From a virus (taxonomy: Duplodnaviria > Heunggongvirae > Uroviricota > Caudoviricetes): a DNA stretch of 10,451 bases. Of the stretch, positions 1 through 10,451 are shown piece by piece. Positions within the stretch are counted from its first letter, which is position 1. Each line of letters starts with the position of its first letter. The notes beneath the pieces are model-generated. The model was not told where the DNA came from, searched no databases, and was given only the letters and a program-made list of their open reading frames with translations. Location: the IMG/VR virus record IMGVR_UViG_2562617113_000011, positions 1 to 10,451 of that record. One strand, 5' to 3'. The position numbers and the translations under genes are program-made.

Positions 1-372
1 TTATCGCCGTAACCGCTCCGGCTTCTTCCACTGGTACGTAATTTTTTCTTTCTCCTGGTACATCTGCACGCGGCGACGGTACGACAACATCTCCAGAACT
101 CTGGTGCGTATGTTGCGTATATCCACGCCATTAAGCTCGATACCGTCACGGCGCATCACCTCAGCCATCACACGCGCGTAATTTTCAGCGGTGACTGTAT
201 CCGGCTGCGTGGCCTGTTCGTCAGCCTGCTGGCTGATTCCGGTAATACTGCGGATTATCCCGAGCGCTTCGGTCTCGGTCATGGTCATGGCCTCCATAGT
301 GATGGCGGGTCCTCCTGGTGGGGTGCCCTGCCACGGGGCGGGAGCATCGCGGAAAAAGGCTAGTTTTTGCAT
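1..372 (-). CDS. Hypothetical protein downstream of the small terminase gene (123 aa as drawn; more likely about 93 aa from an internal start at 282)
   Basis: Complete ORF whose stop codon is the first 3 nt of the window. The ATG at 372 has no convincing SD; the in-frame ATG at 282 is preceded by GGAGG with 8-nt spacing. No family recognised; a short QPDTV motif weakly recalls lambda gpFI but is insufficient to call. Confidence 0.45.
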   Translation of the reverse strand: MQKLAFFRDAPAPWQGTPPGGPAITMEAMTMTETEALGIIRSITGISQQADEQATQPDTVTAENYARVMAEVMRRDGIELNGVDIRNIRTRVLEMLSYRRRVQMYQEKEKITYQWKKPERLRR

Positions 373-491
373 TTTTATTCGTCATCACCACCAATGCAAT
401 ATATTGATATGACTTGATGTTTTATTTTTCGGTGTCGATTTCGATTGTTTTTTGTTCATCACTGACGCATAACTCCCACCAGCGCAACGCT

Positions 492-515
492 GAAAGCCAG
501 TCAGTAAACTGGCTT
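492..515 (-). other. Stem-loop (8-bp stem AAGCCAGT/ACTGGCTT, 6-nt loop) just 3' of the small terminase gene; weak U-tract
   Basis: Perfect inverted repeat seen directly in the 162-nt gap between the TerS stop (534) and the next gene. On the minus strand it is followed only by UUUCAG, so it is an attenuator or stabilising hairpin rather than a strong terminator. Confidence 0.3.
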
Positions 516-533
516 CGGTCATTGTGCACTACG

Positions 534-1076
534 TTACTTGTCTTTATCCGGCTGAAACTTATCAGGCACATTTCCGGTAGTTTCCATCAGATAATCGGAC
601 AGCATTCGCGGGATGTTTTCATCAAGTTTTGTGCATGCGTTACAGGCTCTGACAACTTCTTTTTTCAGGCCATCCAGCATGGCGGGGGTCATCTGTGGGA
701 AGCGCCTTTGCATGGTAAGCGGCAGGCTGTCCATGATAGATGAAATCTGACTCGCCAGTTTTGAAAGCGCATATATACAAAATTCCGTACTAATCACGTC
801 GCCGCGTTCGCGCTCGTTTTTAAGCTCCTGCGCCTCCGCCTGCGCTGTCAACAATCTGATCCTGACTCGCAAAAGCTCATCATTATCAATCTCGCCTTTG
901 TCGTCTGTAATCTGGTTAATTGCATTGCTAACCCGATTGTCTATTACGCTGGCAACATCATAAAACGCCTCGCGGCCTTTACGTTCAACGGGAGTCACTC
1001 CCCACTTGTCGAACGCTGTCGCACTTACACGGCAGCTTTGCGCCATGTTTTTTTTGTTCATCAGGTGCGATTTCAT
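534..1076 (-). CDS. Terminase small subunit, lambda Nu1-like (180 aa)
   Basis: The C-terminal two-thirds aligns closely to my recollection of lambda gpNu1 (e.g. AQAEAQELKN, LPLTMQRRFP, LDENIPRMLSDY); the N-terminal DNA-binding region is divergent. Start chosen at the ATG at 1076 (GGGGA SD, 5-nt spacing); alternatives are GTG 1088 and ATG 1061. Confidence 0.8.
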   Translation of the reverse strand: MKSHLMNKKNMAQSCRVSATAFDKWGVTPVERKGREAFYDVASVIDNRVSNAINQITDDKGEIDNDELLRVRIRLLTAQAEAQELKNERERGDVISTEFCIYALSKLASQISSIMDSLPLTMQRRFPQMTPAMLDGLKKEVVRACNACTKLDENIPRMLSDYLMETTGNVPDKFQPDKDK

Positions 1077-1181
1077 CAATATCCCCACTTAAGTAATGTT
1101 TCAGGTTGGTGTATTTGTTTTATCTTTCCCTTTTTATTCATAGAGATAGAGCGAACAACAAAACCACCACCAGCACCCGAA

Positions 1182-1228
1182 AAAGGCTCATAAATAGCGA
1201 AAACCCGCGCGTCTGCCGCCCCGTAACG
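1182..1228 (-). other. Lambda-like cos site (cosN-like 12-mer GGGCGGCAGACG at 1210-1221 on the minus strand, flanked by lambda-identical sequence)
   Basis: The minus strand reads CCGTTACG-GGGCGGCAGACG-CGCGGGTTTTCGCTATTTATGA. As I recall it, lambda reads GTTACG-GGGCGGCGACCT-CGCGGGTTTTCGCTATTTATGA, so the 22 nt after the 12-mer are identical and 5 of 12 overhang positions differ. It lies directly upstream of the Nu1-like gene, as in lambda. Confidence 0.6.
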
Positions 1229-1277
1229 GGTCCATATGCCGGAAAGGACCCGCCAGCCAGAGCGGGCCCTAATTTCA

Positions 1278-1622
1278 TCAACCAATCAACTTATTGCGCC
1301 CTTTCAGGGCATTACGCCTGGCGCGTTCAATCTTGAGGCATAACGCCGCATCAGGTTTTTCGGGGGTGGGAACAAGGCAATAATTTGATGCGCGCGGAAT
1401 GTTGTTAATCCACGCAACAACTTCGCTTAAATACCATGCCTTGCGGCCTTTCGTAACCTGTACGCGTTCGGGGAACTCTCCGCGAGCCTCAAGGTTTAGC
1501 AATGTGCGACGGCTAAGGGTTGTAAGCTCCACTACCTGATCCATATCGACAAGACGCTCGCTTAAGCGCATTTTATCATCGATATCTAATAGCTCTCGTA
1601 GCTGACTATCTCTTTCAATCAT
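1278..1622 (-). CDS. AlpA/excisionase-family HTH DNA-binding protein embedded in the head/packaging operon (114 aa)
   Basis: The central segment LVDMDQVVELTTLSRRTLLNLEARGEFPERVQVTKGRKAWYLSEVVAWI fits the AlpA/Vis pattern (hydrophobic-T-x-LSRsT-x(6)-G-FP ... W ... EV-x-W). ATG at 1622 lies 9 nt after the D-like stop, with GAGG overlapping that stop. Confidence 0.55.
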   Translation of the reverse strand: MIERDSQLRELLDIDDKMRLSERLVDMDQVVELTTLSRRTLLNLEARGEFPERVQVTKGRKAWYLSEVVAWINNIPRASNYCLVPTPEKPDAALCLKIERARRNALKGRNKLIG

Positions 1623-1631
1623 TCTCGTACC

Positions 1632-1973
1632 TCACACACGTGCCAGCGGCTGAACAGAAATACCTGAGCCAACAAACGCAGCAACTTTTGCTGATAGTTG
1701 TGTTACAGACTCAGGCCAGTTCAGAGCATCAACATTTAAGACGCCGGTTTTATAAACCTGAGCCTGCGTTTTTGTCGCTGTATCGATTTGTACAGCGGAA
1801 ACATAAACAGCTTTGCCTGCGCTCGTTCCATCCCATACCACCAGTGCACCAGTTACATCTTCTTGCATCAGTGGCGTAAACGCAGGGATTACCCCTTTAT
1901 TGGCTGAAAATATCCCCAGCGTAGTAACCAGTGCTTCAGTGCCAGCCATGAGTTCAGTGTAATGAGTAGCCAT
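1632..1973 (-). CDS. Head decoration protein, lambda gpD-like (113 aa)
   Basis: Size and motifs match remembered lambda gpD (PAFTPLM, VVWDGT, LNWPE, AFVGSGISV). Sits immediately downstream of the E-like gene (9-nt gap) with an AAGGGGGAG SD. Confidence 0.75.
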   Translation of the reverse strand: MATHYTELMAGTEALVTTLGIFSANKGVIPAFTPLMQEDVTGALVVWDGTSAGKAVYVSAVQIDTATKTQAQVYKTGVLNVDALNWPESVTQLSAKVAAFVGSGISVQPLARV

Positions 1974-1982
1974 TGCTCCCCC

Positions 1983-3023
1983 TTAACCAATGCGAACGGT
2001 AACAAAACGATTGATGCGGGCCGGTATTGGCTGTGGTGCAGAGTGCGTTTGTACGTACTCAATAGCCGGATCACCTGGTACGATGTAATTTTTCGGCGCA
2101 AGTTCGGCTTTAGTAAGCCCCATTCTGATTAACTCAGGATCCTGAATGCCACCGTAGGCAACGATGCCCTGTAATGATGTGTTGCCAAGCACCATCAAAT
2201 CAGGATCAAGGAAATATCTTTCAGTTCCGTCCTCGTCGGTATAACGTCCGCTATATACCACAATAGCAACATCGCCAACGTAACCCTTGAAGCTTACAGA
2301 ATCCCCAAGATTTTTCAGGGCCGTTTCAAGAACGGAATTAGATCCCCGTCGAGTATCAAGGCAATCTTTTACTGCTTTAAAGGCGCGGTATTTTTTCCAT
2401 ACGTTGCGGCCCATTACGATGATATTTGTAGTACCTTCGCTGATTTCTGCGTACTCTTCGATGTCATCGTTTGGATCAAATGTTGATAAATCTCTACCGC
2501 CCCACTCCGTACCGCCGAACTGCGTGATAATATTTTGTGGTTTTATATTCCAGTCCAGTTCATAACGTTCAATTCCATCGCCTTCAATGATATTTTTCCC
2601 CGTTGTAACCGCCTGAACAGCAAGCCACTCAATACGCGCACGAATTGCCTGCGCTTGTCTTACTAACGCTCGCTTTATTTTGAAACTGCGTGATGAATAT
2701 GCATTGAATTGTTCCGGTGATACGCCTGGTTGACGAACGGCTATTTTATTTGGGTCGATACTACTTTTTGGCTTCATATAGCCAGGACGAATTACTTTTG
2801 ATTCGTAGCCTTCATCGCGTGAGACTTTGCTACCAACCATAGGGGAACAAAATGCAGCCATCGGGATGTCTGGATCGTCAATAATATCAAGCGCAATATC
2901 CCGCGTCTCAAATGTAACGACTCGCTTAAAAAACAGGTTTATAAATAAAGAATTAATCTGCCATTGAATATCTTCGGCATTAACAACCTGTATTAACATA
3001 GCTGGTGAATATAAATCACTCAT
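1983..3023 (-). CDS. Major capsid protein, lambda gpE-like (346 aa)
   Basis: Long collinear similarity to remembered lambda gpE (NIITQFGGTEWGGRDLSTFDPNDDIEEYA, FKAVKDCLDTRRGSNSVLETA, GDVAIVVYSGRY, MVLGNT, VPGDPA); 346 aa against 341 aa for gpE; AAGAGG SD 4 nt before the ATG. Confidence 0.85.
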   Translation of the reverse strand: MSDLYSPAMLIQVVNAEDIQWQINSLFINLFFKRVVTFETRDIALDIIDDPDIPMAAFCSPMVGSKVSRDEGYESKVIRPGYMKPKSSIDPNKIAVRQPGVSPEQFNAYSSRSFKIKRALVRQAQAIRARIEWLAVQAVTTGKNIIEGDGIERYELDWNIKPQNIITQFGGTEWGGRDLSTFDPNDDIEEYAEISEGTTNIIVMGRNVWKKYRAFKAVKDCLDTRRGSNSVLETALKNLGDSVSFKGYVGDVAIVVYSGRYTDEDGTERYFLDPDLMVLGNTSLQGIVAYGGIQDPELIRMGLTKAELAPKNYIVPGDPAIEYVQTHSAPQPIPARINRFVTVRIG

Positions 3024-3207
3024 ATAACCTCTTAATACTTAGTAAAAGTGTCGCGTTAATTTTATCATCTGCCTTGTTCGGCATCTTTATGCATTGCTAT
3101 GCAATAGTGTGCAAAGTTTCAATCTTCGTTTATTTATCCGGCGTTACGTGTCATTCTGTACAGCGTTACAAGTTCAAAGACATAAATTATTCTCTTTGGT
3201 GATGAAA

Positions 3208-3234
3208 GGGTCGGAATATTCCGGCCTTTTTTTT
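3208..3234 (+). terminator. Intrinsic terminator on the plus strand (hairpin GGUCGGAAUAUUCCGGCC followed by T8)
   Basis: Palindrome CGGAATATTCCG extended by G-C and G-U pairs, then TTTTTTTT at 3227-3234. No convincing plus-strand CDS lies upstream. Confidence 0.55.
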
Positions 3235-3256
3235 GCGTGGTGTGACGGACTAAACT

Positions 3257-3281
3257 GATAAAAGCCGGATTGCTCCGGCTT
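3257..3281 (-). terminator. Intrinsic terminator ending the SSB operon (stem AAGCCGGA/TCCGGCTT, loop TTGC, then UUUUAU on the minus strand)
   Basis: Perfect 8-bp GC-rich stem located 15 nt after the SSB stop; the minus-strand read is followed by a T-run. Confidence 0.6.
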
Positions 3282-3295
3282 CTGTCACTCGTTGC

Positions 3296-3718
3296 TTAAA
3301 ACGGTATGTTATCCCCGTACGGATCATCGTTACCCGCCTGTTGTTTTGCCCTGTTCAGTGCGTCAGTAGCCTGCCCCTGCTGGCCTTTTTTGCCGCCCGG
3401 TCGCACCGTTCTCGCACTGATTACGCTGTCTGCGATAACCTGCCAGCCCTGCCGCGTTTCGCCGTTCTGGCCTGTCCACTGGCTTACCTGCATGTTACCC
3501 GCCACGCTCACCAGTTCGCCTTTGTGGTGTTTTGCCAGTGCGTCGGCCTGTCTGCCAAACGCCAGGACAGATAACCACATCGTCGCCGTTCCGTCATTTG
3601 CCTGGCTGCATGGCAGGGGAACCGCCATACTCGCCATCGCCATTTGTGTCCCTTTGCTGGTGGTCTTTAACTGCGGGTCAGCCACCAGCCGCCCGTAAGC
3701 CGCTATCTGTGCTGTCAT
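3296..3718 (-). CDS. ssb: Single-stranded DNA-binding protein (140 aa)
   Basis: OB-fold SSB pattern (GRLVADPQLK ... WLSVLAFGRQAD ... GELVSVAGNMQVSQWTGQNGETRQ), a Gly/Gln-rich linker and a C-terminal DDPYGDNIPF resembling the canonical SSB acidic tip DDDIPF. ATGA start/stop overlap with the upstream gene. Confidence 0.75.
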   Translation of the reverse strand: MTAQIAAYGRLVADPQLKTTSKGTQMAMASMAVPLPCSQANDGTATMWLSVLAFGRQADALAKHHKGELVSVAGNMQVSQWTGQNGETRQGWQVIADSVISARTVRPGGKKGQQGQATDALNRAKQQAGNDDPYGDNIPF

Positions 3719-3993
3719 GCTGTCTGCTCTCCGGTTTTAACATTGATGGTTGTCACCTGTTCCGCTTCGGCAATCTCCCGTTCTGTCAGCGTGGCAAAGT
3801 TTGCTGCCGCCGTTGTCATGAATGCGCTTATCAGGTCGGGATGTTCCTTCGCGTATCCTTCCCCCGCGTGGCGGTCTATCGTTCTGATTGCCACCTTTAA
3901 AGCGTGCTCTGTCATGTCTAACGCGCGATATTTCGGCTCTGTTCTGTCTCTGCGTTTTTTGAGTGATTTATTAAATCTCCCTGAAGTGTGCAT
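3715..3993 (-). CDS. Hypothetical protein, basic N-terminus (92 aa), translationally coupled to ssb
   Basis: ORF with a GAGGGGG SD upstream of the ATG at 3993; its stop overlaps the ssb start (ATGA). No family recognised. Confidence 0.5.
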   Translation of the reverse strand: MHTSGRFNKSLKKRRDRTEPKYRALDMTEHALKVAIRTIDRHAGEGYAKEHPDLISAFMTTAAANFATLTEREIAEAEQVTTINVKTGEQTA

Positions 3994-4040
3994 ATTTATT
4001 TTTACCCCCTCGTTTAAAAAGTTTTGAGTTGTGCCTCCCC

Positions 4041-4268
4041 TTGTCTACCTTATCTACCTTAGTGGCCCCTATGCCAGTAATGGCGCGGCTTTCAGCGGGG
4101 TAGAGTGCTTTTATCCACTATCTACTCCGTATCTACCTCCCTGTCTGATTCAGGTAAAATCAGGTAGAGAGGGTAGACAGTGGGTAGACTGTAAAAAAAG
4201 GCTGTCTACCTAACTTAATATACTGAATTAAATGTATTTTCCTTTACTCAGGTAGACAGGGTAGACAG
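4041..4268. repeat. Iteron cluster, putative origin of replication: about 9-bp GGTAGACAG/CTGTCTACC repeats in both orientations flanking an AT-rich spacer
   Basis: Direct copies at 4163-4171 (GGTAGAGAG), 4172-4180, 4183-4191 (GGTAGACTG), 4251-4259 and 4260-4268. Inverted copies at 4041-4049 and 4202-4210, with degenerate TCTACC units at 4051-4058, 4119-4127 and 4131-4137. AT-rich stretch at 4211-4250. Lies immediately 3' of the primase gene. Confidence 0.65.
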
Positions 4269-4281
4269 CAATTACAAAAAA

Positions 4282-6036
4282 TTATAAAAACGCGTCGCAC
4301 TCGTCTGTTGTTATTGCGTTAGTCTGCGTTACCCCCTTAACTTTCCGCGTAATATATTCATGTCCATAAACTTTTGCGGCAGGCTTCATAGCCTTGCCAA
4401 AGTCATTTACGTTTAGCGGTTTGCTCCTGCCTGCGTATGCCATAAACGCCAGATAGACGCGGTAAAGGCTGTTCCTGGTCGTGTACTTCACTGAATCACC
4501 ACCGCCCCCCATCATCAGGCCGCGCGCTTCCTCCAGAAAATTCAGGAACTGGCAAAACTCAATAACCGGATCCGTCTGTTGCTTTATTGCCAGTGCTTCA
4601 TCACCGTCACGCTGTTCCAGTAGTAAAGCCCGTGCCTTCTCAGGGTCGGTAAAGTTCGCCAGCAATCGGCGGATAATAACGGGGATTTCAGCCGCAATCT
4701 TTTCCGGTAGCTCCCTGTCTTTTTCGGCATCACTGACGATATTGTCGAAACGGAAAATCACGCGACGACGTGCCACACCTCCGGCCCGTTCGGTGAATAT
4801 CATCGGGTTGTTGTTGGTCGCCAGCACCACCGCCCTGATTACCGCCGTGAAACGCTTTTCATATTTCGGGTTAATTTCCACGGGGTCGCCGCCTGTGATT
4901 TTCTTGATGCCCGTTCCTTCGCCTGTATATTTCGGCTGGTCAGCCAGGACGATAAGACGACTCCCGACAACCTGCGCACGTCCACCAGCATCATCAAGCG
5001 ATGTCATTTCAGCGCTTACCGTGTTCTGTTTCCCTGCCAGAAGGCTGGCTATGTGTGTGAATGTACTTTTACCGCTCCCGCCGTCTCCGGTGGCCTCAAT
5101 AAACATCTGCCAGTCGTACCGGTTCGCCATAATCATGTACAGCGCGGCACATATACGCATCATCTTGCGCGGGTCTTTTCCGGCTGCGTGCTCAAGCCAT
5201 TTATGAAAGTTTGGCGCGTTATCGCGGATGTTTTCCCCTGGTGCTGGTAGCGTGTACTCAATGCCGTTGTGCGTGGTGATCCAGTTCTCCGGCGTGTGCG
5301 GGGAAAATTCCCCCGTTTTCAGGTCAAGCGCACCATTGGCGAACGGCAGCAAATCGCCGGACGGCTCGCCCATTGGTTCGGCAATAACTTTTAACGCTTC
5401 CACGGCGTTATTGATTACGCGCTTGCTGAAAGTGGCCCTGTGCTCTGAATAGATCGCCACCATTTCGCGGCTAAGTTCCATTGTGCTGACCGGACACCAT
5501 ACCCCGCCGCGCCATACGTGAACGATTTCACTTTCAGGATGTACGCAAACGCCATCAAAGCGATCGGCAAGCAGCTGCGCGCGCTCACTGTCCGCCATCT
5601 GCGAAAGTTGCGCCTTTTGCTTTACCGGAAGCTCAATGACCAGACCATCAGAAAGATTCTGGCGCTCACGGGCCAGATATTCGCGCCAGTTCTCCACCTT
5701 CTGACCGTGCATACCGTCAGGGTAAAAATTTGCATCCTGTACGCCTGCCGCCGCCAGCTTCTGACCAATTGCCTTTATCATTACAGGCGCAAGATATCCG
5801 GCCCTGTATATGCGTGCTGATTTTCGGCCTTCCGGCACAATTTGCAGCTTATCCAGTTCGGATAACTGCTGCTCCCCAAGCCACACAGGAGGCTCATTAT
5901 CTCCGGCCATACGCGCATCATGTTCCTGCCATTGTTTCGCGTGTGCCCAGGCATCACTACCCGCAAAAATAATGACTTCTGTTCCTTTGTGTTTTATGCC
6001 GCGTGACTGCTGTTTTACGTTCGGTGCCAGTTTCAT
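4282..6036 (-). CDS. P4-family primase/helicase replication initiator (584 aa; Walker A GDGGSGKST, SF3-type NTPase)
   Basis: P-loop GDGGSGKST and a following hydrophobic Walker-B-like stretch RLIVLADQ; overall resemblance to the helicase/C-terminal part of P4 alpha and PICI pri-rep proteins; N-terminal region possibly toprim-like. ATGA overlap with the upstream gene. Confidence 0.85.
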   Translation of the reverse strand: MKLAPNVKQQSRGIKHKGTEVIIFAGSDAWAHAKQWQEHDARMAGDNEPPVWLGEQQLSELDKLQIVPEGRKSARIYRAGYLAPVMIKAIGQKLAAAGVQDANFYPDGMHGQKVENWREYLARERQNLSDGLVIELPVKQKAQLSQMADSERAQLLADRFDGVCVHPESEIVHVWRGGVWCPVSTMELSREMVAIYSEHRATFSKRVINNAVEALKVIAEPMGEPSGDLLPFANGALDLKTGEFSPHTPENWITTHNGIEYTLPAPGENIRDNAPNFHKWLEHAAGKDPRKMMRICAALYMIMANRYDWQMFIEATGDGGSGKSTFTHIASLLAGKQNTVSAEMTSLDDAGGRAQVVGSRLIVLADQPKYTGEGTGIKKITGGDPVEINPKYEKRFTAVIRAVVLATNNNPMIFTERAGGVARRRVIFRFDNIVSDAEKDRELPEKIAAEIPVIIRRLLANFTDPEKARALLLEQRDGDEALAIKQQTDPVIEFCQFLNFLEEARGLMMGGGGDSVKYTTRNSLYRVYLAFMAYAGRSKPLNVNDFGKAMKPAAKVYGHEYITRKVKGVTQTNAITTDECDAFL

Positions 6037-6332
6037 TTTTTACCCCTGAATCCGTTAATCATGGTTTTCAGCTTCTGGATGTTTGCCCGTGCCCTGGCGT
6101 TGCTGGTGGGCACGTTATGCGGCGCGGTCTGTACCAGAGAAAAATCACGGGCAAACTGATAAACAGGCATCACGCAATCATATTCGTAACCTTCACGGCG
6201 GTAAGTTACGCGCCGTTCCTCCACGCCCTTAATCATTACCGTGCCGCCGTACTGGTCGCGGTAAATATCACCGCGCATGAATTTAGTGCGAGTTTTGCCG
6301 CTGGCAGTTAAGCCAGGATATTTAAGTTTCAT
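6033..6332 (-). CDS. Hypothetical protein immediately upstream of and coupled to the primase (99 aa)
   Basis: GGAGA SD 9 nt before the ATG at 6332; stop overlaps the primase ATG. Its position matches that of P4 Cnr-type replication modulators, but this is positional inference only. Confidence 0.5.
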   Translation of the reverse strand: MKLKYPGLTASGKTRTKFMRGDIYRDQYGGTVMIKGVEERRVTYRREGYEYDCVMPVYQFARDFSLVQTAPHNVPTSNARARANIQKLKTMINGFRGKK

Positions 6333-6337
6333 TATTT

Positions 6338-6571
6338 TTATTCTCCGGTGTGCTGTTCTTTATATCTGTCGTGCAATAGGTCTATTTCTTGTAGTTCCAT
6401 TATTACAGGCTCAAGAAGCGTTATTAATGCCGTGACAATTCGGGATTTTTGTTTGTCGCGTTCATTATCGCCAAGCGTTTCAAGCCATAAGCGCAATATT
6501 TCCAACATGTTTTCACTGTGAGAAAGTGCAAGAAATGCGCGGTCTATTGTTTCGTGGTAAATATCACGCAT
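6338..6571 (-). CDS. Hypothetical small helical protein (77 aa)
   Basis: GGGGA SD 5 nt before the ATG at 6571; 1-nt gap after the upstream gene's stop. No family recognised. Confidence 0.5.
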   Translation of the reverse strand: MRDIYHETIDRAFLALSHSENMLEILRLWLETLGDNERDKQKSRIVTALITLLEPVIMELQEIDLLHDRYKEQHTGE

Positions 6572-6572
6572 A

Positions 6573-7025
6573 TTAATCCCCGTCCGTCGCTTTTCTTAAA
6601 ATAACCTCTGTCACGAAATCAGCATAATCGGCGGCAATATTCAGTACATCAAGTCCCGTTGATTTATATTCTTTCGTGGAAAGTAAGAAAAAATCCGCTC
6701 TAATAAGTTCTGGCATTGACGAAAGCGCATCAGCCGCATCACCAGGAACGCCGGAAAATTCCTGTTTCAGGGCATTAAAACGATCATCACGCATAACCCC
6801 CCCATTTTCACAATCAGTAATCAGGATGGCTTTAGCCTCATTCAGTGCCATATCAGCACTAAATTGCATAACAGCCAGTGAGTGAGGAACGAAAGCCCCG
6901 GCATATTCTGTTTCGCTGGTGGCGTGCTTATGTGCCCTGTCCGCGATAACAGAAATATCAATCAGCGCGTGCATCAGCGTTTTGATGGCTTCGGCGGCTG
7001 CGTCCTGACGGGTGTTATTGCACAT
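6573..7025 (-). CDS. Hypothetical protein (150 aa)
   Basis: Strong AGGAGG SD 6 nt before the ATG at 7025. The longer 300-aa ORF in the track is an R/P/S-rich upstream extension and was rejected. Start overlaps the stop of the upstream gene by 11 nt. Confidence 0.55.
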   Translation of the reverse strand: MCNNTRQDAAAEAIKTLMHALIDISVIADRAHKHATSETEYAGAFVPHSLAVMQFSADMALNEAKAILITDCENGGVMRDDRFNALKQEFSGVPGDAADALSSMPELIRADFFLLSTKEYKSTGLDVLNIAADYADFVTEVILRKATDGD

Positions 7026-7557
7026 GGCGCACCTCCTGACGAATACGGGCGGCGAATACAGCGACACAACCGGACGGGCAATGGTTACGCGCTTCGCGTT
7101 CCGTCCAGGCGGTGACGTGGATGATTTGGGATTCTGACGCGCCAAAGATGATAAAGCGCCAGATAAAGACAGTGTGAGAATGTATAAGGGTAGGGATAGT
7201 AGCCATGTTGGCAGCCTCCTTTGACAGTGAAGAATTTCCACCGCAGGAAACGCCAATTTCGCTGGCGGTGGACTGAACGGGGTTGGCGTAACCGGCGTCA
7301 AAGGGAACCGGCGCTTCCGAAGAAGCCCCCGCCCAGCCCACCATAACTTTGATGTGAGCGAATGCGGACGATAAAAAAGACGCTGGCGCGTCATATATCG
7401 CCTTTGACATTTCCAAGACGCCAATCCCGGCACCAGATTTTGCTGGTGCGGGTAAATCATAGCCCTGGCTGGCATTGGCGATCAACAGGTTTTTTACATC
7501 GGGTTTATTCAGGTTGTGCGAGTCCCGCCCTTGCGGGTGTGTGGTATGATTTAACAT
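7015..7557 (-). CDS. First gene of the replication operon: Ash-family-like N-terminal region fused in frame to an Icd-like (host cell division inhibitor-like) C-terminal region (180 aa)
   Basis: The N-terminal half carries motifs I associate with P4-like Ash proteins (AKSGAGIGV, MVGWAG, PVPFDAGYANPVQSTASEIGVS). The C-terminal 63 aa (FIWRF ... ESQIIHVTAWTEREARNHC ... AVFAARIRQEV) resembles Icd-like proteins and has its own AAGGAGG SD before an internal ATG at 7206. GAGGT SD before the ATG at 7557. Family assignment is from memory. Confidence 0.5.
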   Translation of the reverse strand: MLNHTTHPQGRDSHNLNKPDVKNLLIANASQGYDLPAPAKSGAGIGVLEMSKAIYDAPASFLSSAFAHIKVMVGWAGASSEAPVPFDAGYANPVQSTASEIGVSCGGNSSLSKEAANMATIPTLIHSHTVFIWRFIIFGASESQIIHVTAWTEREARNHCPSGCVAVFAARIRQEVRHVQ

Positions 7558-7649
7558 AGCTACCTCGATACTTCTGCTATCGTTGGTGGTTAGAAGCCCT
7601 GCGAGTGGTAACGACACTTGCGGGGCTTTGCATTTATGCGCCTTGATAA

Positions 7650-7730
7650 TTTTAAGGTGTGGCCCACTATATGTTTTAGGTGTGGCCCACGTCAAGAGTT
7701 TTATTTGTGCTTTTTCTGTGTATACTGTCC
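7650..7730. promoter_or_regulatory. Divergent promoter/operator region: two 13-bp direct repeats AGGTGTGGCCCAC (7655-7667, 7678-7690) overlapping candidate sigma70 promoters on both strands
   Basis: Minus strand: -35 TTGACG (plus 7690-7695), 18-bp spacer, -10 TATAGT (plus 7666-7671), so both repeats fall in the -35/spacer/-10 region. Plus strand: -10 TATACT (7721-7726) with upstream TGTG, 30 nt before the RHH-like gene. Each repeat contains the dyad GTGG-C-CCAC. Confidence 0.55.
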
Positions 7731-7756
7731 CCCACCAATCCACCAGAGGAATAGAA

Positions 7757-7936
7757 ATGGCAACGGGTACAACAAACGCAAAATCACAAGCTCTAAAGGC
7801 TCGTGTACCACACGAAATAGTAAACGCCATGGAATCAGTGAAAGAATCAGGCGAAAGCACATCACAATTCATCATTACGTCAATGCAAGGCGAGATCAAA
7901 CGCCGCCAGCGGCGCAAGGCCAAAGAGCAGGAGTAA
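7757..7936 (+). CDS. Small DNA-binding-like protein, possibly ribbon-helix-helix (59 aa); candidate repressor acting at the adjacent repeats
   Basis: GAGGAA SD 6 nt before the ATG; the N-terminal segment KSQALKARVPHEIVNAMESV resembles an Arc/CopG-type strand-helix; basic C-terminal tail. Fold is inferred, not computed. Confidence 0.55.
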   Translation: MATGTTNAKSQALKARVPHEIVNAMESVKESGESTSQFIITSMQGEIKRRQRRKAKEQE

Positions 7937-7993
7937 CCATCACCAGCGCTGTGGTGCGGTGAACTGTGGCGCACTGGGTTACAGGTATCTACG

Positions 7994-8191
7994 ATGACTG
8001 ACAAATCATTAAAGAAATTATCCTCATCCAGGAAAAAACAACGCAAAAATGCGGTAAGCGAACAAGAACAGGAGAGATTTGCGCCATGTGCGTTTGCCCT
8101 TGAGAAGTTCTTAAAAGAGTACAGGCGCACAAAAATGGGGTCGCATACCTGGAAAACATCGCGGCATGGCAATGTTAAAGAGCAGGAATAG
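7994..8191 (+). CDS. Hypothetical highly basic small protein (65 aa); coding status uncertain
   Basis: ORF following the RHH-like gene in the same orientation with a weak SD (AGGT, 7-nt spacing); K/R-rich, no motif recognised. A plus-strand terminator follows at 8295-8322. Confidence 0.35.
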   Translation: MTDKSLKKLSSSRKKQRKNAVSEQEQERFAPCAFALEKFLKEYRRTKMGSHTWKTSRHGNVKEQE

Positions 8192-8294
8192 CCCACCAGC
8201 AAGCCAGCACACTGATCACATTGCCCACCAGCCGCAAATGTGGCATTGTTGGCAATGCTCATGCGTTGGGGATAACGTGTAGCTTGTGTCGAAG

Positions 8295-8322
8295 GGCCAC
8301 CGTAGCGGGTGGCCTTTGTTTT
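8295..8322 (+). terminator. Intrinsic terminator for the small plus-strand operon (stem GGCCACC/GGTGGCC, then TTTGTTTT)
   Basis: 7-bp GC stem with a 6-nt loop followed by a T-rich tract on the plus strand only. Confidence 0.55.
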
Positions 8323-8360
8323 GCCTGTTATCCGGCAATTGTGGCGCTTCGCTACACGGT

Positions 8361-8446
8361 TGATATAATCCCACTGCACTGATTCATTTTTTGCGCAGTA
8401 GGTTAATTGTTCGCAAGGGCGCTCCGGCAACGGGGCGCTTTTTGTT
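8361..8446 (+). ncRNA. Candidate small RNA unit: extended -10 promoter (TGaTATAAT, 8361-8369) followed about 50 nt later by a strong intrinsic terminator (8419-8446)
   Basis: Perfect TATAAT preceded by TGn; hairpin GCGCUCCG-GCAA-CGGGGCGC (GNRA-type loop) followed by TTTTTGTT; no ATG-initiated ORF between them. Lies on the opposite strand just past the 3' end of alpA. Confidence 0.3.
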
Positions 8447-8473
8447 ATGTTCATCGCGTTACGCCTCACACCA

Positions 8474-8680
8474 TTACGCAGCCGTTCCGCGCGCTTCTTC
8501 CTCGCGCTCTTTCAGCCAGGCCAGCACTTCATCTTCATACCAGCCAACACGACGCAGACCGATTTTGAAGCCTTTCGGGAATTTTCCTGCGTTGATCATG
8601 TCCTGTAGCGAACTGTCTGCCTTGATGCGCAGAATATTTTTTACTTCCTGACGGGTAAGTATTTTTCTGATTGTTTCCAC
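8474..8680 (-). CDS. alpA: AlpA/Vis-family phage transcriptional regulator / excisionase-like protein (68 aa)
   Basis: HTH pattern LRIKADSSLQDMINAGKFPKGFKIGLRRVGWYEDEVLAWL typical of AlpA; GTG start at 8680 with GAGGT SD 8 nt upstream; position next to the integrase. Confidence 0.8.
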   Translation of the reverse strand: METIRKILTRQEVKNILRIKADSSLQDMINAGKFPKGFKIGLRRVGWYEDEVLAWLKEREEEARGTAA

Positions 8681-8813
8681 TATGTTTTACCTCGTTAATC
8701 CGGCGTATTCCGGTGATAAATACGGTAAAACAGGGCTGGGCGGGAAAAACAGTACCCACCGTTTTAAAACGGTATCCACTGTTTTTTATCTCATTGATTA
8801 CGCTTTTCTTTCT

Positions 8814-8846
8814 GCAAAAAAATAGCGACCGCAAAGGGCCGCTATT
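8814..8846 (-). terminator. Intrinsic terminator after the integrase-proximal small gene (10-bp stem with one mismatch, then a U6-8 tract on the minus strand)
   Basis: Inverted repeat AATAGCGACC/GGCCGCTATT (8821-8846) followed on the minus strand by an A-run on the plus strand (8815-8820), i.e. U-tract. Confidence 0.55.
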
Positions 8847-8850
8847 GTGA

Positions 8851-9093
8851 TTACCGTTTCCACTTCTTAGGTCGCCCACCGCATTTAAGGCTGGTGGGCC
8901 TCAGCACCTTGTCGATGCTTTCAGCCAGATTTTTCGATGCACCACGCGAGCGCAAAAAACTGACTACCTCGTGTTTTGTGGGGGCTGTTGATTTGTCTTC
9001 CGGATCGTATGTTGACCAGAATTCACGATTTGCCATTAACGCCAGTTGCAGCCCTTCGCCGCAAGCAGGGGATACCTTTTCATTGAAAAACAC
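8851..9093 (-). CDS. Hypothetical protein downstream of the integrase (80 aa), basic C-terminus GGRPKKWKR
   Basis: GTG start at 9093 with AAGGAG SD 8 nt upstream; followed by an intrinsic terminator. No family recognised. Confidence 0.45.
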   Translation of the reverse strand: MFFNEKVSPACGEGLQLALMANREFWSTYDPEDKSTAPTKHEVVSFLRSRGASKNLAESIDKVLRPTSLKCGGRPKKWKR

Positions 9094-9209
9094 CTGGATA
9101 GCTCCTTGAATTTCATGATTTGGGTGACTCCTCTCTGTATTGGGTGGGTTGTGGCGATTATACGATGGTTTAGCATGGTTTGCATCGCTTTTACTGGTTT
9201 TTTGTACAG

Positions 9210-10451
9210 TTACACGGCACGGATACCCCTTTTACCACTGGCTATGGTCACTCCGGTAGCTGCGGCCTCTACAAATTCCCCCCACCAGCGCATAAGCACC
9301 ACGCGCTTTTCCAGGTAGTTACTTCGGTTATATGCTCGCCTTACCTCGTTCGTGTCCACGTGTGCGAGTGCGGCCTCGATTACGTCCGGCTCGAATCCTT
9401 CCTCGTTCGCTGCTGTACTGAATATGGCGCGTAATCCGTGAGACACCAGCACACCAGCGTATCCCATCCGGCGCAATGCAGCGTTAGCGGTCTGGCTGTT
9501 CATTGGCAGCATTGGATTTTTAAGGCTGGGAAAAACATGTTCCCTGTGTGCGCTGATTGGCTTCATTGTTTCCAGTACAGCCATCGCCTGACCGCAAAGA
9601 GGGATCACATGGTCACGGCGCATCTTCATGCGTCCGGCTGGAATCGTCCATGTTTCGGCATCGAGATCTATTTCTTCCCAGCGTGCGGCGGCTGCTTCGG
9701 CTGGGCGTGCTACGGTCAGCAGTTGCCACTCGATTAGCAATCTGGTTTGCCGTTCTATGCTGGCGACCGATAAATCGTGCATTAGCTGCGGTAGCTGTTC
9801 CGGTCGGATGGTTGGCATATGCTTTTTAGTGGGGGAAGGGAATGCCTTGCGGACGTTCGCGGCGGTGTTGATGTCAATCAGCCCACTGTTGGCAGCAAAA
9901 TCCATCACTTCATTGATGCGTTGTAAAACGCGTTTCAGAGTTTCCAGGTTGCCGCGTGCTTTAATGGGTGTGAGTATCTCAACAAAGCGGCGAGCGGTGA
10001 GGGTATCTATTGGCGTGTTTCCGATGTACGGGAATACGTATTTTTCCAGGGATCGCCAGATATCCTTAATCGTGTTGTAAGCCAGATTCTGGCCTTTTTT
10101 CATCTCGTACCAGTCCAAGGCAACTTTTTCGAACGTGTTGCCCTTTTTCCTGCTCTCTGCTTCACGTTTCCGGCGTTCGTAGTCCTGTGGGTCAGTTCCC
10201 TTTGCTATGAGTGACCTGTATTCATTCCGTCGCTCTCTGGCATCAGACAGGGAAACATCATTTAGCGATCCAAGGCTGATAATAGTCCGTTTTTTATCTG
10301 CCGGGCGGTAGTACGTAAAACGCCAGATTTTTGATCCGGAGGGCTTCACCAGAAGAAATAATCCTCCGCCATCCTGCAGGGTATATTCCTTTTCCCCTGG
10401 TCGTGCGTTTTTGATCTCCGTAATAGTTAGTGGGGTGGTTTTTCGTGCCAT
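9210..10451 (-). CDS. int: P4-type tyrosine integrase (site-specific recombinase, 413 aa)
   Basis: N-terminus MARKTTPLTITEIKNARPGEKEYTLQDGGGLFLLVKPSGSKIWRFTYY is typical of P4/CP4-57-type integrases; C-terminal catalytic region with HGLR and the RRAYNRSNY tyrosine motif. The start codon is the last 3 nt of the window. Confidence 0.9.
   Translation of the reverse strand: MARKTTPLTITEIKNARPGEKEYTLQDGGGLFLLVKPSGSKIWRFTYYRPADKKRTIISLGSLNDVSLSDARERRNEYRSLIAKGTDPQDYERRKREAESRKKGNTFEKVALDWYEMKKGQNLAYNTIKDIWRSLEKYVFPYIGNTPIDTLTARRFVEILTPIKARGNLETLKRVLQRINEVMDFAANSGLIDINTAANVRKAFPSPTKKHMPTIRPEQLPQLMHDLSVASIERQTRLLIEWQLLTVARPAEAAAARWEEIDLDAETWTIPAGRMKMRRDHVIPLCGQAMAVLETMKPISAHREHVFPSLKNPMLPMNSQTANAALRRMGYAGVLVSHGLRAIFSTAANEEGFEPDVIEAALAHVDTNEVRRAYNRSNYLEKRVVLMRWWGEFVEAAATGVTIASGKRGIRAV

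Follow-up and report, generated by a model that had tools for sequence, protein, structure and literature searches.

We propose that the phage-inducible chromosomal island (PICI) described here encodes its own assembly-competent pair of shell and cement proteins, and that this pair supplies or replaces the corresponding helper proteins in heads of helper size, the capsid not being shrunk, a reading to which we assign a probability of about 0.45. The island fills the window, by which we mean the whole stretch of 10,451 nucleotides that was analysed (positions 1 to 10,451 of the IMG/VR virus record IMGVR_UViG_2562617113_000011), and it is a Gram-negative cos-type PICI of the EcCICFT073 kind with a length of ~10.7 kb. 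On its minus strand at 1983..3023 lies E, an intact, full-length, lambda-type (HK97-fold) major capsid protein of the satellite, with 346 amino acids and belonging to what we term the satellite ('S') clade. Starting 9 nt past the E stop codon is D, a lambda gpD-type head decoration (cement) protein of 113 amino acids (1632..1973, minus strand). From sequence comparison, E and D appear to be an old, satellite-specific and co-inherited cassette at the late/packaging end of the island. What is new here is that E, D and a following AlpA-like gene are recognized as a swappable cassette, that they define a satellite-only clade with inverted gene order, and that alternative capsid families occupy one and the same slot.

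The identification of E rests on comparisons that agree with each other. The open reading frame (ORF) starts with the ATG at 3023, and from reading the sequence a ribosome-binding site, AAGAGG, is located 7 nt upstream. The product matches Pfam PF03864 (Phage_cap_E) with an E-value of 3.4e-40 and 138.5 bits (cut-off 22.9) over profile positions 9-327 of 329, and PHROG 29, 'major head protein', with an E-value of 5e-88. Its alignments with lambda gpE (PDB 7VI9, E=2.5e-75; global identity 41.5%) and with PDB 3BQW, a 'putative capsid protein of prophage' from Escherichia coli CFT073 (E=5e-121), both extend over the full length. An AlphaFold2 model computed from a 51-sequence alignment has a mean predicted local distance difference test (pLDDT) score of 80 and a predicted template-modelling (pTM) score of 0.80, with a spine helix at residues 108-141 and a flexible, low-confidence E-loop at 56-72, and it superposes on 3BQW with a template-modelling (TM) score of 0.91 and on lambda gpE with scores of 0.86-0.87. 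All elements of a complete HK97 fold (N-arm, E-loop, spine helix, P- and A-domains) are predicted by this model. The companion protein D matches PF02924 (7.4e-16), PHROG 49 and, among known structures, 1TD0 (3e-16) and lambda gpD (2e-12). The two proteins thus belong to the same Pfam families as lambda gpE and gpD; E has the fold of gpE, a similar length and the invariant motifs PGY.KPK, DTRRGS and GDP, and D keeps the N-terminal T-H-Y motif. They differ from the lambda pair in that identity is 41.5% for E and ~39-41% for D, the gene order is reversed, and the window pair has no adjacent Nu1-A-W-B-C-Nu3 or FI/FII genes.

E is clearly separated from the capsid proteins of phages. Among 50,697 phage records, 415 of which contain an E homologue, no identity to E exceeds 42%, and the top matches are lambda and its close relatives. 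In a wider homologue set taken from a collection of 5.8 billion proteins, 45 full-length sequences form a satellite group with identities of 49-98% to E and 40-47% to lambda gpE, whereas the phage group is 57-100% identical to lambda gpE and 38-42% to E. A neighbour-joining tree splits the two groups in 100 of 100 bootstrap replicates, and the internal branch between them, at 0.27 substitutions per site, is 3.5 times the median branch length. Across both groups 40 columns are invariant and 45 near-invariant. Identity inside the satellite clade falls to as little as 46%, a depth which indicates that the E gene has long been kept in satellites.

Gene order follows the same division. Loci of the satellite clade are small islands with an integrase, AlpA, and a primase or helicase, and E precedes D in every context inspected by annotation or Pfam, namely in E. 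coli (three allele types), Kluyvera, Salmonella, Edwardsiella, Lelliottia and Serratia; in Superficieibacter, Cedecea and Kosakonia, where tblastn coordinates alone were used, D likewise comes after E. The phage-clade order is Nu1-A-W-B-C-D-E-FI in every context inspected, these being lambda, two prophages whose capsid protein is named by NCBI for Plesiomonas shigelloides, and one Citrobacter prophage. The inverted E-D order is, judged from these sequences, a shared derived character of the satellite lineage. Both orders meet in Edwardsiella tarda (locus L017, 1-13626), where a satellite-type E-D PICI lies directly upstream of the truncated portal gene of a lambda-like prophage and appears to have inserted in that gene. 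The satellite E-D and the prophage D-E are 3.5 kb apart at this locus, and the two E proteins are 47% and the two D proteins 41% identical. In Salmonella enterica the same E-D-bearing PICI is found at two different late-gene sites of P2-like prophages (L009 and L010, ~4300-14000), the capsid protein of which (gpN family) is unrelated to gpE, such that the helper-embedded arrangement is also seen in a non-lambdoid phage.

Two unusual sequences were also noted. One, on a metagenome scaffold (P0046, L016 2801-3829), is identical to lambda gpE over residues 1-~225 and to the satellite clade over the remainder, and has lambda B-C-D as its neighbours in one direction and satellite D-AlpA in the opposite one; an assembly artefact and a real phage-satellite recombinant are the two possible sources of this chimera, which was not used as evidence. 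The other, from one Logan contig of 3,243 bp (P0002), encodes a product of 463 amino acids in which a single frame runs through E and D. It shares 97% identity with the query and reflects either read-through or a sequencing error in the 9 nt between the two genes, or else a fusion that occurs naturally.

The evidence from sequence evolution says that the E gene is functional. The ratio of non-synonymous to synonymous substitution rates (dN/dS) of E is 0.07 and 0.13 in two close comparisons; against four 76-80%-identical genes of other genera dN is 0.12-0.18, with synonymous sites being saturated (proportion of synonymous differences, pS, 0.77-0.87). D and the AlpA-like gene show the same purifying pattern. 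A blastn search detects the E gene in 995 of 5,426 complete E. coli genomes (~18%), with the match covering at least 80% of the query in 435 of the 995, and the matches listed all carry the annotation 'major capsid protein' for an intact gene. The identities of E and D co-vary across loci (r=0.96 for all pairs and r=0.94 within the satellites). Purifying selection together with the retention of a cognate gpD-like gene leads us to predict that E forms shells, and maintenance of a gpD-type protein under such selection suggests that expanded, filled E lattices are formed.

The differences between the two clades, 17 of which are fixed and clade-specific, are unevenly spread along E, and the satellite-specific conserved stretches are three in number. 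The first, AFCSPMVGS.V.RD (residues 58-71), is inside the low-confidence loop of the model; the second, EWLAV.A.TTGKNIIEG.GIERYE.DW, covers the last part of the spine helix plus the beta-hairpin after it; and the third, IEYVQTHSAPQP.P...FVTV, is in the C-terminal strands. The region matching lambda residues 205-254 is the most similar between the clades. By the conventions of the HK97 fold, and given that gpD attaches to expanded shells by building a sheet together with the E-loop and N-arm (PMC5701804), the three stretches would correspond to the E-loop and P-domain, that is, to inter-capsomer and D-binding surfaces, and the most similar region to the A-domain. In E these E-loop/P-domain residues are unlike those of lambda gpE, and lambda W308 is Y313 in E.

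The same genes appear to be exchanged as a unit. Comparison of the flanks with two other island types delimits an exchangeable 'capsid cassette' at 1225..3259 (unstranded), comprising a leader, E, D, the AlpA-like gene and the cosQ side of cos. Relative to the island of E. coli UTAK-5 (L014), the window is 99.7% identical over 1-1224, 92% over 3260-3932 and 99.8% at the integrase end, yet in the UTAK-5 slot (2785-4698) 1225-3259 is replaced by one 637-amino-acid gene that fuses a ClpP-like protease, scaffold and major capsid protein. The phages closest to this fusion, namely mEp460, cdtI and lambdoid phages like them, share just 57% identity with it. Relative to the EcCICFT073-type island (L006), the proteins outside the cassette are more similar, with 96% identity for the single-stranded DNA-binding protein (SSB) and 85% for the small terminase subunit (TerS), than are E (55%) and D (54%). 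3BQW is the crystal structure of c1499, the capsid homologue of EcCICFT073, which is the model Gram-negative PICI and comes from E. coli CFT073. The capsid protein of the L006 island type (P0044) aligns nearly identically with 3BQW (E=1.2e-231), and E and c1499 are 54-55% identical. One cassette breakpoint, 1224/1225, is at the edge of cosN and the other is where a terminator-like hairpin (3263-3280) that follows SSB ends. All islands compared have shell-building genes in the slot. Hence, by these alignments, the slot between SSB and cos holds alternative capsid modules on otherwise near-identical backbones.

Relatives of the island carry further late genes. The island of Lelliottia sp. SL45 (L018) has E, D and then a C-type head protease with a Nu3-like scaffold part, together with a head-closure (Hc1) gene and a 142-amino-acid protein weakly similar to the N-terminus of TerS (all of these within 8001-10752 and 3117-3518), and it looks like a step towards the capsid-forming PICIs (cf-PICIs). 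The relatives with an added protease-scaffold gene or with the fusion suggest a graded series in that direction. Just downstream of E-D-AlpA, a lambda gpI-like tail-assembly gene (PHROG 32) is found in Kluyvera (L002, 12062-12661, E=1e-76) and Serratia (L020, 10122-10748, E=7e-67). In c1499-type cassettes a conserved ORF of 68-70 amino acids (PHROG 3255, unknown function) ends exactly at the start codon of E (L006 9795-10001 and L017 7789-8001); it has no counterpart in the window.

That the window is a PICI is evident from its gene content. All recognizable genes are on the minus strand in the order integrase, AlpA, DUF4222, D5-type primase, SSB, E, D, AlpA-like gene, cos and Nu1-like TerS. 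By Pfam and PHROG, the integrase is at 9210-10451, AlpA at 8474-8680 and the D5-type primase at 4282-6036, and SSB (3296-3718) is preceded by one small gene after the primase. The closest complete E. coli genome, that of strain EC43 (L001; NZ_CP196712), is 98% identical, and its element lies between yejO and tRNA-Pro/yejM with 26-nt direct repeats 10,654 bp apart. The element thus combines an integrase, AlpA and primase on the same strand with a length in the 10-20 kb range, attachment (att) repeats and a predicted helper-type cos. The sequence-only reading of this DNA had described a full-length lambda gpE-like capsid protein at 1983-3023 that is encoded by a small island as a homologue of the lambda-type helper capsid protein, and this description holds in each of its parts: Pfam, PHROG, PDB and the AlphaFold2 model agree on the protein, and the gene content and the repeats on the island. 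Identities of 41.5% to gpE and 47% for the Edwardsiella pair show that the homologue is a diverged one. By ORF, Pfam and PHROG analyses, no portal, protease/scaffold, large terminase, connector, tail or lysis genes were found in the window.

The packaging end of the island is likewise distinctive. A lambda-like cos site (~1180..1255, minus strand) was read directly from the sequence, with GGTCCTTTCCGG...CGTTACG on one side of the 12-nt cosN, GGGCGGCAGACG (1221-1210), and CGCGGGTTTTCGCTATTTATGA on the other, and it is between the second AlpA gene and the terminase gene. The cos flanks are near-identical to those of lambda, but the 12-nt end differs from GGGCGGCGACCT, the lambda cohesive end. 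A pattern search for lambda cosN with up to two mismatches had given matches at chance level only, and cos was then located by reading the sequence. TerS (534..1088, minus strand) is a Nu1-type small terminase subunit (PF07471, 5.5e-23; PHROG 57, 6e-52) of 180-184 amino acids that aligns with lambda Nu1 residues 3-180 at 36% identity. Since the alignment includes the C-terminal end, the protein is a full small terminase and not the 144-residue Rpp of EcCICFT073; for the same reasons of alignment and length (180-184 versus 144 amino acids for RppA) its identification as the published Rpp was rejected, and PDB sequence searches with the 1-372 and Nu1-like products gave no match to 6HLK or 6HN7 (Rpp). 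A full-length TerS suggests, as far as its sequence can tell, that the island may be packaged by direct recruitment of the helper large terminase.

These features can be assembled into the following scheme. Helper induction would lead to excision of the island and its replication with its own primase and SSB, and the E-D-AlpA operon would be transcribed from its own leader. This non-coding leader and presumed promoter region (3024..3259, minus strand, from reading the sequence) is just downstream of the hairpin at 3263-3280, and its homology to sister islands ends at 3259/3260; a promoter/terminator scan gave no more sites than shuffled sequence, with one consensus promoter-like match at 3035-3008. 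E would then polymerize on the helper portal with the helper C/Nu3 protease-scaffold, because the island has neither of these. The island Nu1-type TerS would recognize the island cos and recruit the helper gpA-type large terminase, a concatemer of about four 10.7-kb units would fill a helper-size head (triangulation number T=7), and trimers of the island D would lock the expanded E lattice. The benefit, we conjecture, would be less dependence on the amount, type and integrity of the helper E and D, and it would be visible where the shell proteins of the helper are in short supply, do not match or, as with helper-embedded islands, are interrupted.

The size of the island is consistent with such a scheme. 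A small genome can fit a helper head because several cos-to-cos units are packaged per head, and by our estimate four units of 10.65 kb amount to 42.6 kb, or 88% of the lambda length. The packaging range of lambda is 78-105%, and gpD is essential above ~82% fill. Four other satellite-clade islands are ~10.5-11 kb from approximate gene spans, and four copies of these would come to 42-44 kb, mid-way in that range and more than the fill that makes gpD essential. Islands of 10.5-11 kb would thus sit well within what a T=7 head takes as four units, and only marginally fit heads of T=4 or T=3, for which the estimates are rough.

Several considerations weigh against this proposal. No experiment places any PICI E or D protein in a capsid. 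In EcCICFT073, where c1499 (capsid) and c1500 (head decoration) are the counterparts of E and D, transfer by resident prophages, by lambda and by phi80 was not measurably lower when either gene was deleted, and lambda plaquing was not recovered. Exchanging c1499 for a marker likewise revealed no phenotype, and a structural contribution was never seen (Fillol-Salom et al., 2018; PMC6092414). The island is without scaffold and protease, and assembly therefore assumes cross-reaction of E with the helper C/Nu3 and portal. The Salmonella islands in P2-like prophages, with their unrelated capsid, are a poor fit to the idea that the satellite matches the shell of its helper, and the correlation of E and D identities could be explained by linkage alone. 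The null phenotypes, however, are accounted for if E and D are redundant with plentiful helper E and D. As pointed out by Mageeney et al. (2023; PMC10111431), PICI capsid genes are not needed for transfer, and a 'backup copy' role was suggested by them for helper-embedded islands. We found no literature assigning a function to PICI capsid or decoration homologues beyond such statements from 2018-2023.

The first alternative, and the proposal of the sequence-only reading, is that E redirects capsid size: with its natural helper, E would form shells smaller than T=7, with room for one or two copies of the island genome and none for that of the helper. It would act either by itself or in mixed shells with helper gpE, in which it would be a Ccm-like penton specialist. 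There is precedent in the Staphylococcus aureus cos-type island SaPIbov5. Its Ccm protein shares only 24% identity with the capsid protein of the helper, takes the pentamer positions and imposes T=4 shells (PMC8569155). Further precedents are PmCI172, which has small capsids and encodes a capsid homologue (PMC6092414), and the lambda small-head mutants described by Katsura (1983; cited in PMC6893505). The residues specific to the satellite clade cluster in the E-loop, at the end of the spine helix and its hairpin and in the C-terminal strands, the A-domain being the most phage-like part, and the allele in the window is just 54-55% identical to the c1499 that was tested. The small-head mutations of lambda reportedly map to gene E and give T=4 heads. 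Set against these points, all DNA packaged in the EcCICFT073 system with lambda as the helper was phage-sized and the c1499 and c1500 deletions were without effect (PMC6092414), a result restated by Dokland (2019; PMC6893505), who noted that EcCICFT073 has a capsid homologue yet capsids of normal size. Island genes other than rppA did not inhibit lambda when expressed (PMC6739421), and islands of 10.5-11 kb are only at the edges of what T=4 or T=3 shells would take. In addition, the conserved motifs specific to the satellites are common to c1499 and E, and a different function for E is thus not indicated. We consider capsid-size redirection unlikely. An argument that 41% identity makes co-assembly with helper gpE unlikely was dropped, as Ccm co-assembles at 24% (PMC8569155).

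What had been proposed from the sequence alone is upheld as to a capsid homologue encoded by a satellite, and is not upheld as to its function as a size redirector or its novelty. The earlier proposal had E as a lambda-type counterpart of the Ccm strategy, and the explicit analogy to SaPIbov5 Ccm was drawn in 2018 for c1499 and c1500 (PMC6092414). Satellite capsid genes and the capsid-shrinking idea are both in the published record of that year, and the size-redirector proposal is unsupported where it was tested.

A more elaborate version assigns the shells wholly to the satellite. With its natural helper, as opposed to the lambda and phi80 of the published experiments on the 54-55%-identical allele, the E-D pair would nucleate on the helper portal and build satellite-only shells of lower T that accommodate one or two 10.7-kb genomes, and the type of cassette, whether one of the two E/D allele families or the protease-scaffold-capsid fusion, would set which helpers can be used. 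This combination strikes us as improbable. If it were true, the lower-T satellite shells would be the lambda-type counterpart of what Ccm does, and would mark an intermediate on the way from classical PICIs to capsid-forming ones.

A second alternative is interference or decoy activity, in which E, or E with D, would poison the assembly of competing lambdoid phages, titrate their scaffold, protease or portal, or bait capsid-sensing host defences, and satellite capsids would not be built. Satellites do commonly interfere with helper assembly, and the divergent alleles and the different capsid family in one slot recall defence and counter-defence hotspots. However, the c1499 and c1500 deletions left interference with lambda intact (PMC6092414); interference and preferential packaging were assigned to RppA, the expression of which alone blocked lambda, and the other genes after the island ori did not inhibit it (PMC6739421). 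A co-varying gpD-type partner would be needless for a decoy, the relatives that add a protease-scaffold gene would be unexplained, and dN/dS is low rather than elevated as expected in an arms race. The chance that E has a role of this kind seems to us slim. Finally, that E is left over from a decaying lambdoid prophage, or is a recently captured helper gene with no satellite function of its own, is effectively refuted, for although E is homologous to a lambda head gene and PICIs do capture helper late genes (PMC10111431), it is an intact ORF under strong purifying selection found in 995 of 5,426 complete E. coli genomes, at most 42% identical to any phage record where the sequence-only reading had named near-identity to a prophage gpE as the mark of a remnant, and it belongs to a satellite-only clade with reversed gene order in at least six inspected genera, with SSB and AlpA/cos/TerS as neighbours, such that both origins were rejected on the grounds of clade, gene order and selection. 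The remaining probability falls to functions beyond the shell-and-cement proposal and these alternatives.

The element can be placed among known satellites as follows. It resembles EcCICFT073, for which induction, packaging and transfer by a helper were demonstrated (PMC6092414), in PICI architecture, in having E of the same satellite clade, in the order of E then D, and in the position of these genes after SSB and before the cos/packaging genes. It differs in that E and D are each only 54-55% identical to their counterparts, the cassette adds an AlpA-like gene, a full Nu1-type TerS is present where EcCICFT073 has the 144-amino-acid RppA, and the integrase and att site (tRNA-Pro/yejM) are different. 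Hence the window element adds to a known PICI type a divergent E/D allele, a full TerS in place of Rpp and a different attachment site. Like Ccm of SaPIbov5, E is the capsid homologue of a cos-packaged satellite and has diverged from the capsid protein of the helper; unlike E, Ccm was shown to make up pentamers and to impose T=4 shells, is of a different sequence family with a delta domain and has no companion decoration gene, whereas the closest tested relative of E gave no change in size. The cf-PICIs (EcCIEDL933 type) also have their own major capsid gene and small terminase, but they encode portal, protease, connectors, HNH and large terminase and need only the tails of a helper; none of these genes is in the window, which holds E, D and TerS and not a complete cf-PICI head and packaging module. 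The helper-embedded 11capE element of Mageeney et al. (2023; PMC10111431) is, like the island in the window, a Gram-negative PICI with its own gpE-family gene, and the Edwardsiella and Salmonella islands are similarly embedded in prophage late regions, whereas the island type in the window is integrated at a chromosomal tRNA-Pro site and not within a helper gene.

The remaining features of the window can be described briefly. The third gene of the cassette (1278..1622, minus strand) encodes an AlpA-family helix-turn-helix regulator or excisionase-like protein (PF05930, 8.7e-08; PHROG 2790, 1.3e-37) and accompanies E-D in the Kluyvera, Serratia and Salmonella islands. The ORF list also includes a small gene of 123 amino acids with no assigned function at 1-372 (minus strand). 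Overlapping ORFs of 300 and 484 amino acids at 6573-8469 (minus strand) have low-complexity translations and are probably spurious; in the equivalent region related genomes annotate small genes (Icd-like, YlcI/YnfO and hypothetical), and GC skew flips sign within it. Two segments, 3932-5615 (the N-terminal half of the primase) and 7059-7504 (a regulatory segment), are swapped relative to the EC43 element, with the primases being just 48% identical and the islands otherwise 98-99.8% identical. The whole island is thus a mosaic of cassettes.

Capsid homologues are the commonest late gene of Gram-negative PICIs, with capsid genes in 21 of 29 reference islands (Mageeney et al., 2023; PMC10111431), and the sole experimental statement on the function of PICI capsid genes is that no phenotype was found. 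An old lineage confined to satellites, purifying selection, a matched cement protein and an exchangeable slot argue for a real function, and natural near-isogenic islands that differ in the cassette only, such as the window and EC43 elements, the UTAK-5 island and the EcCICFT073-type alleles, make that function testable. The answer would have a bearing on the evolution of satellites, from stealing whole capsids towards making their own. If the genes give redundancy only, the finding is an ordinary one.

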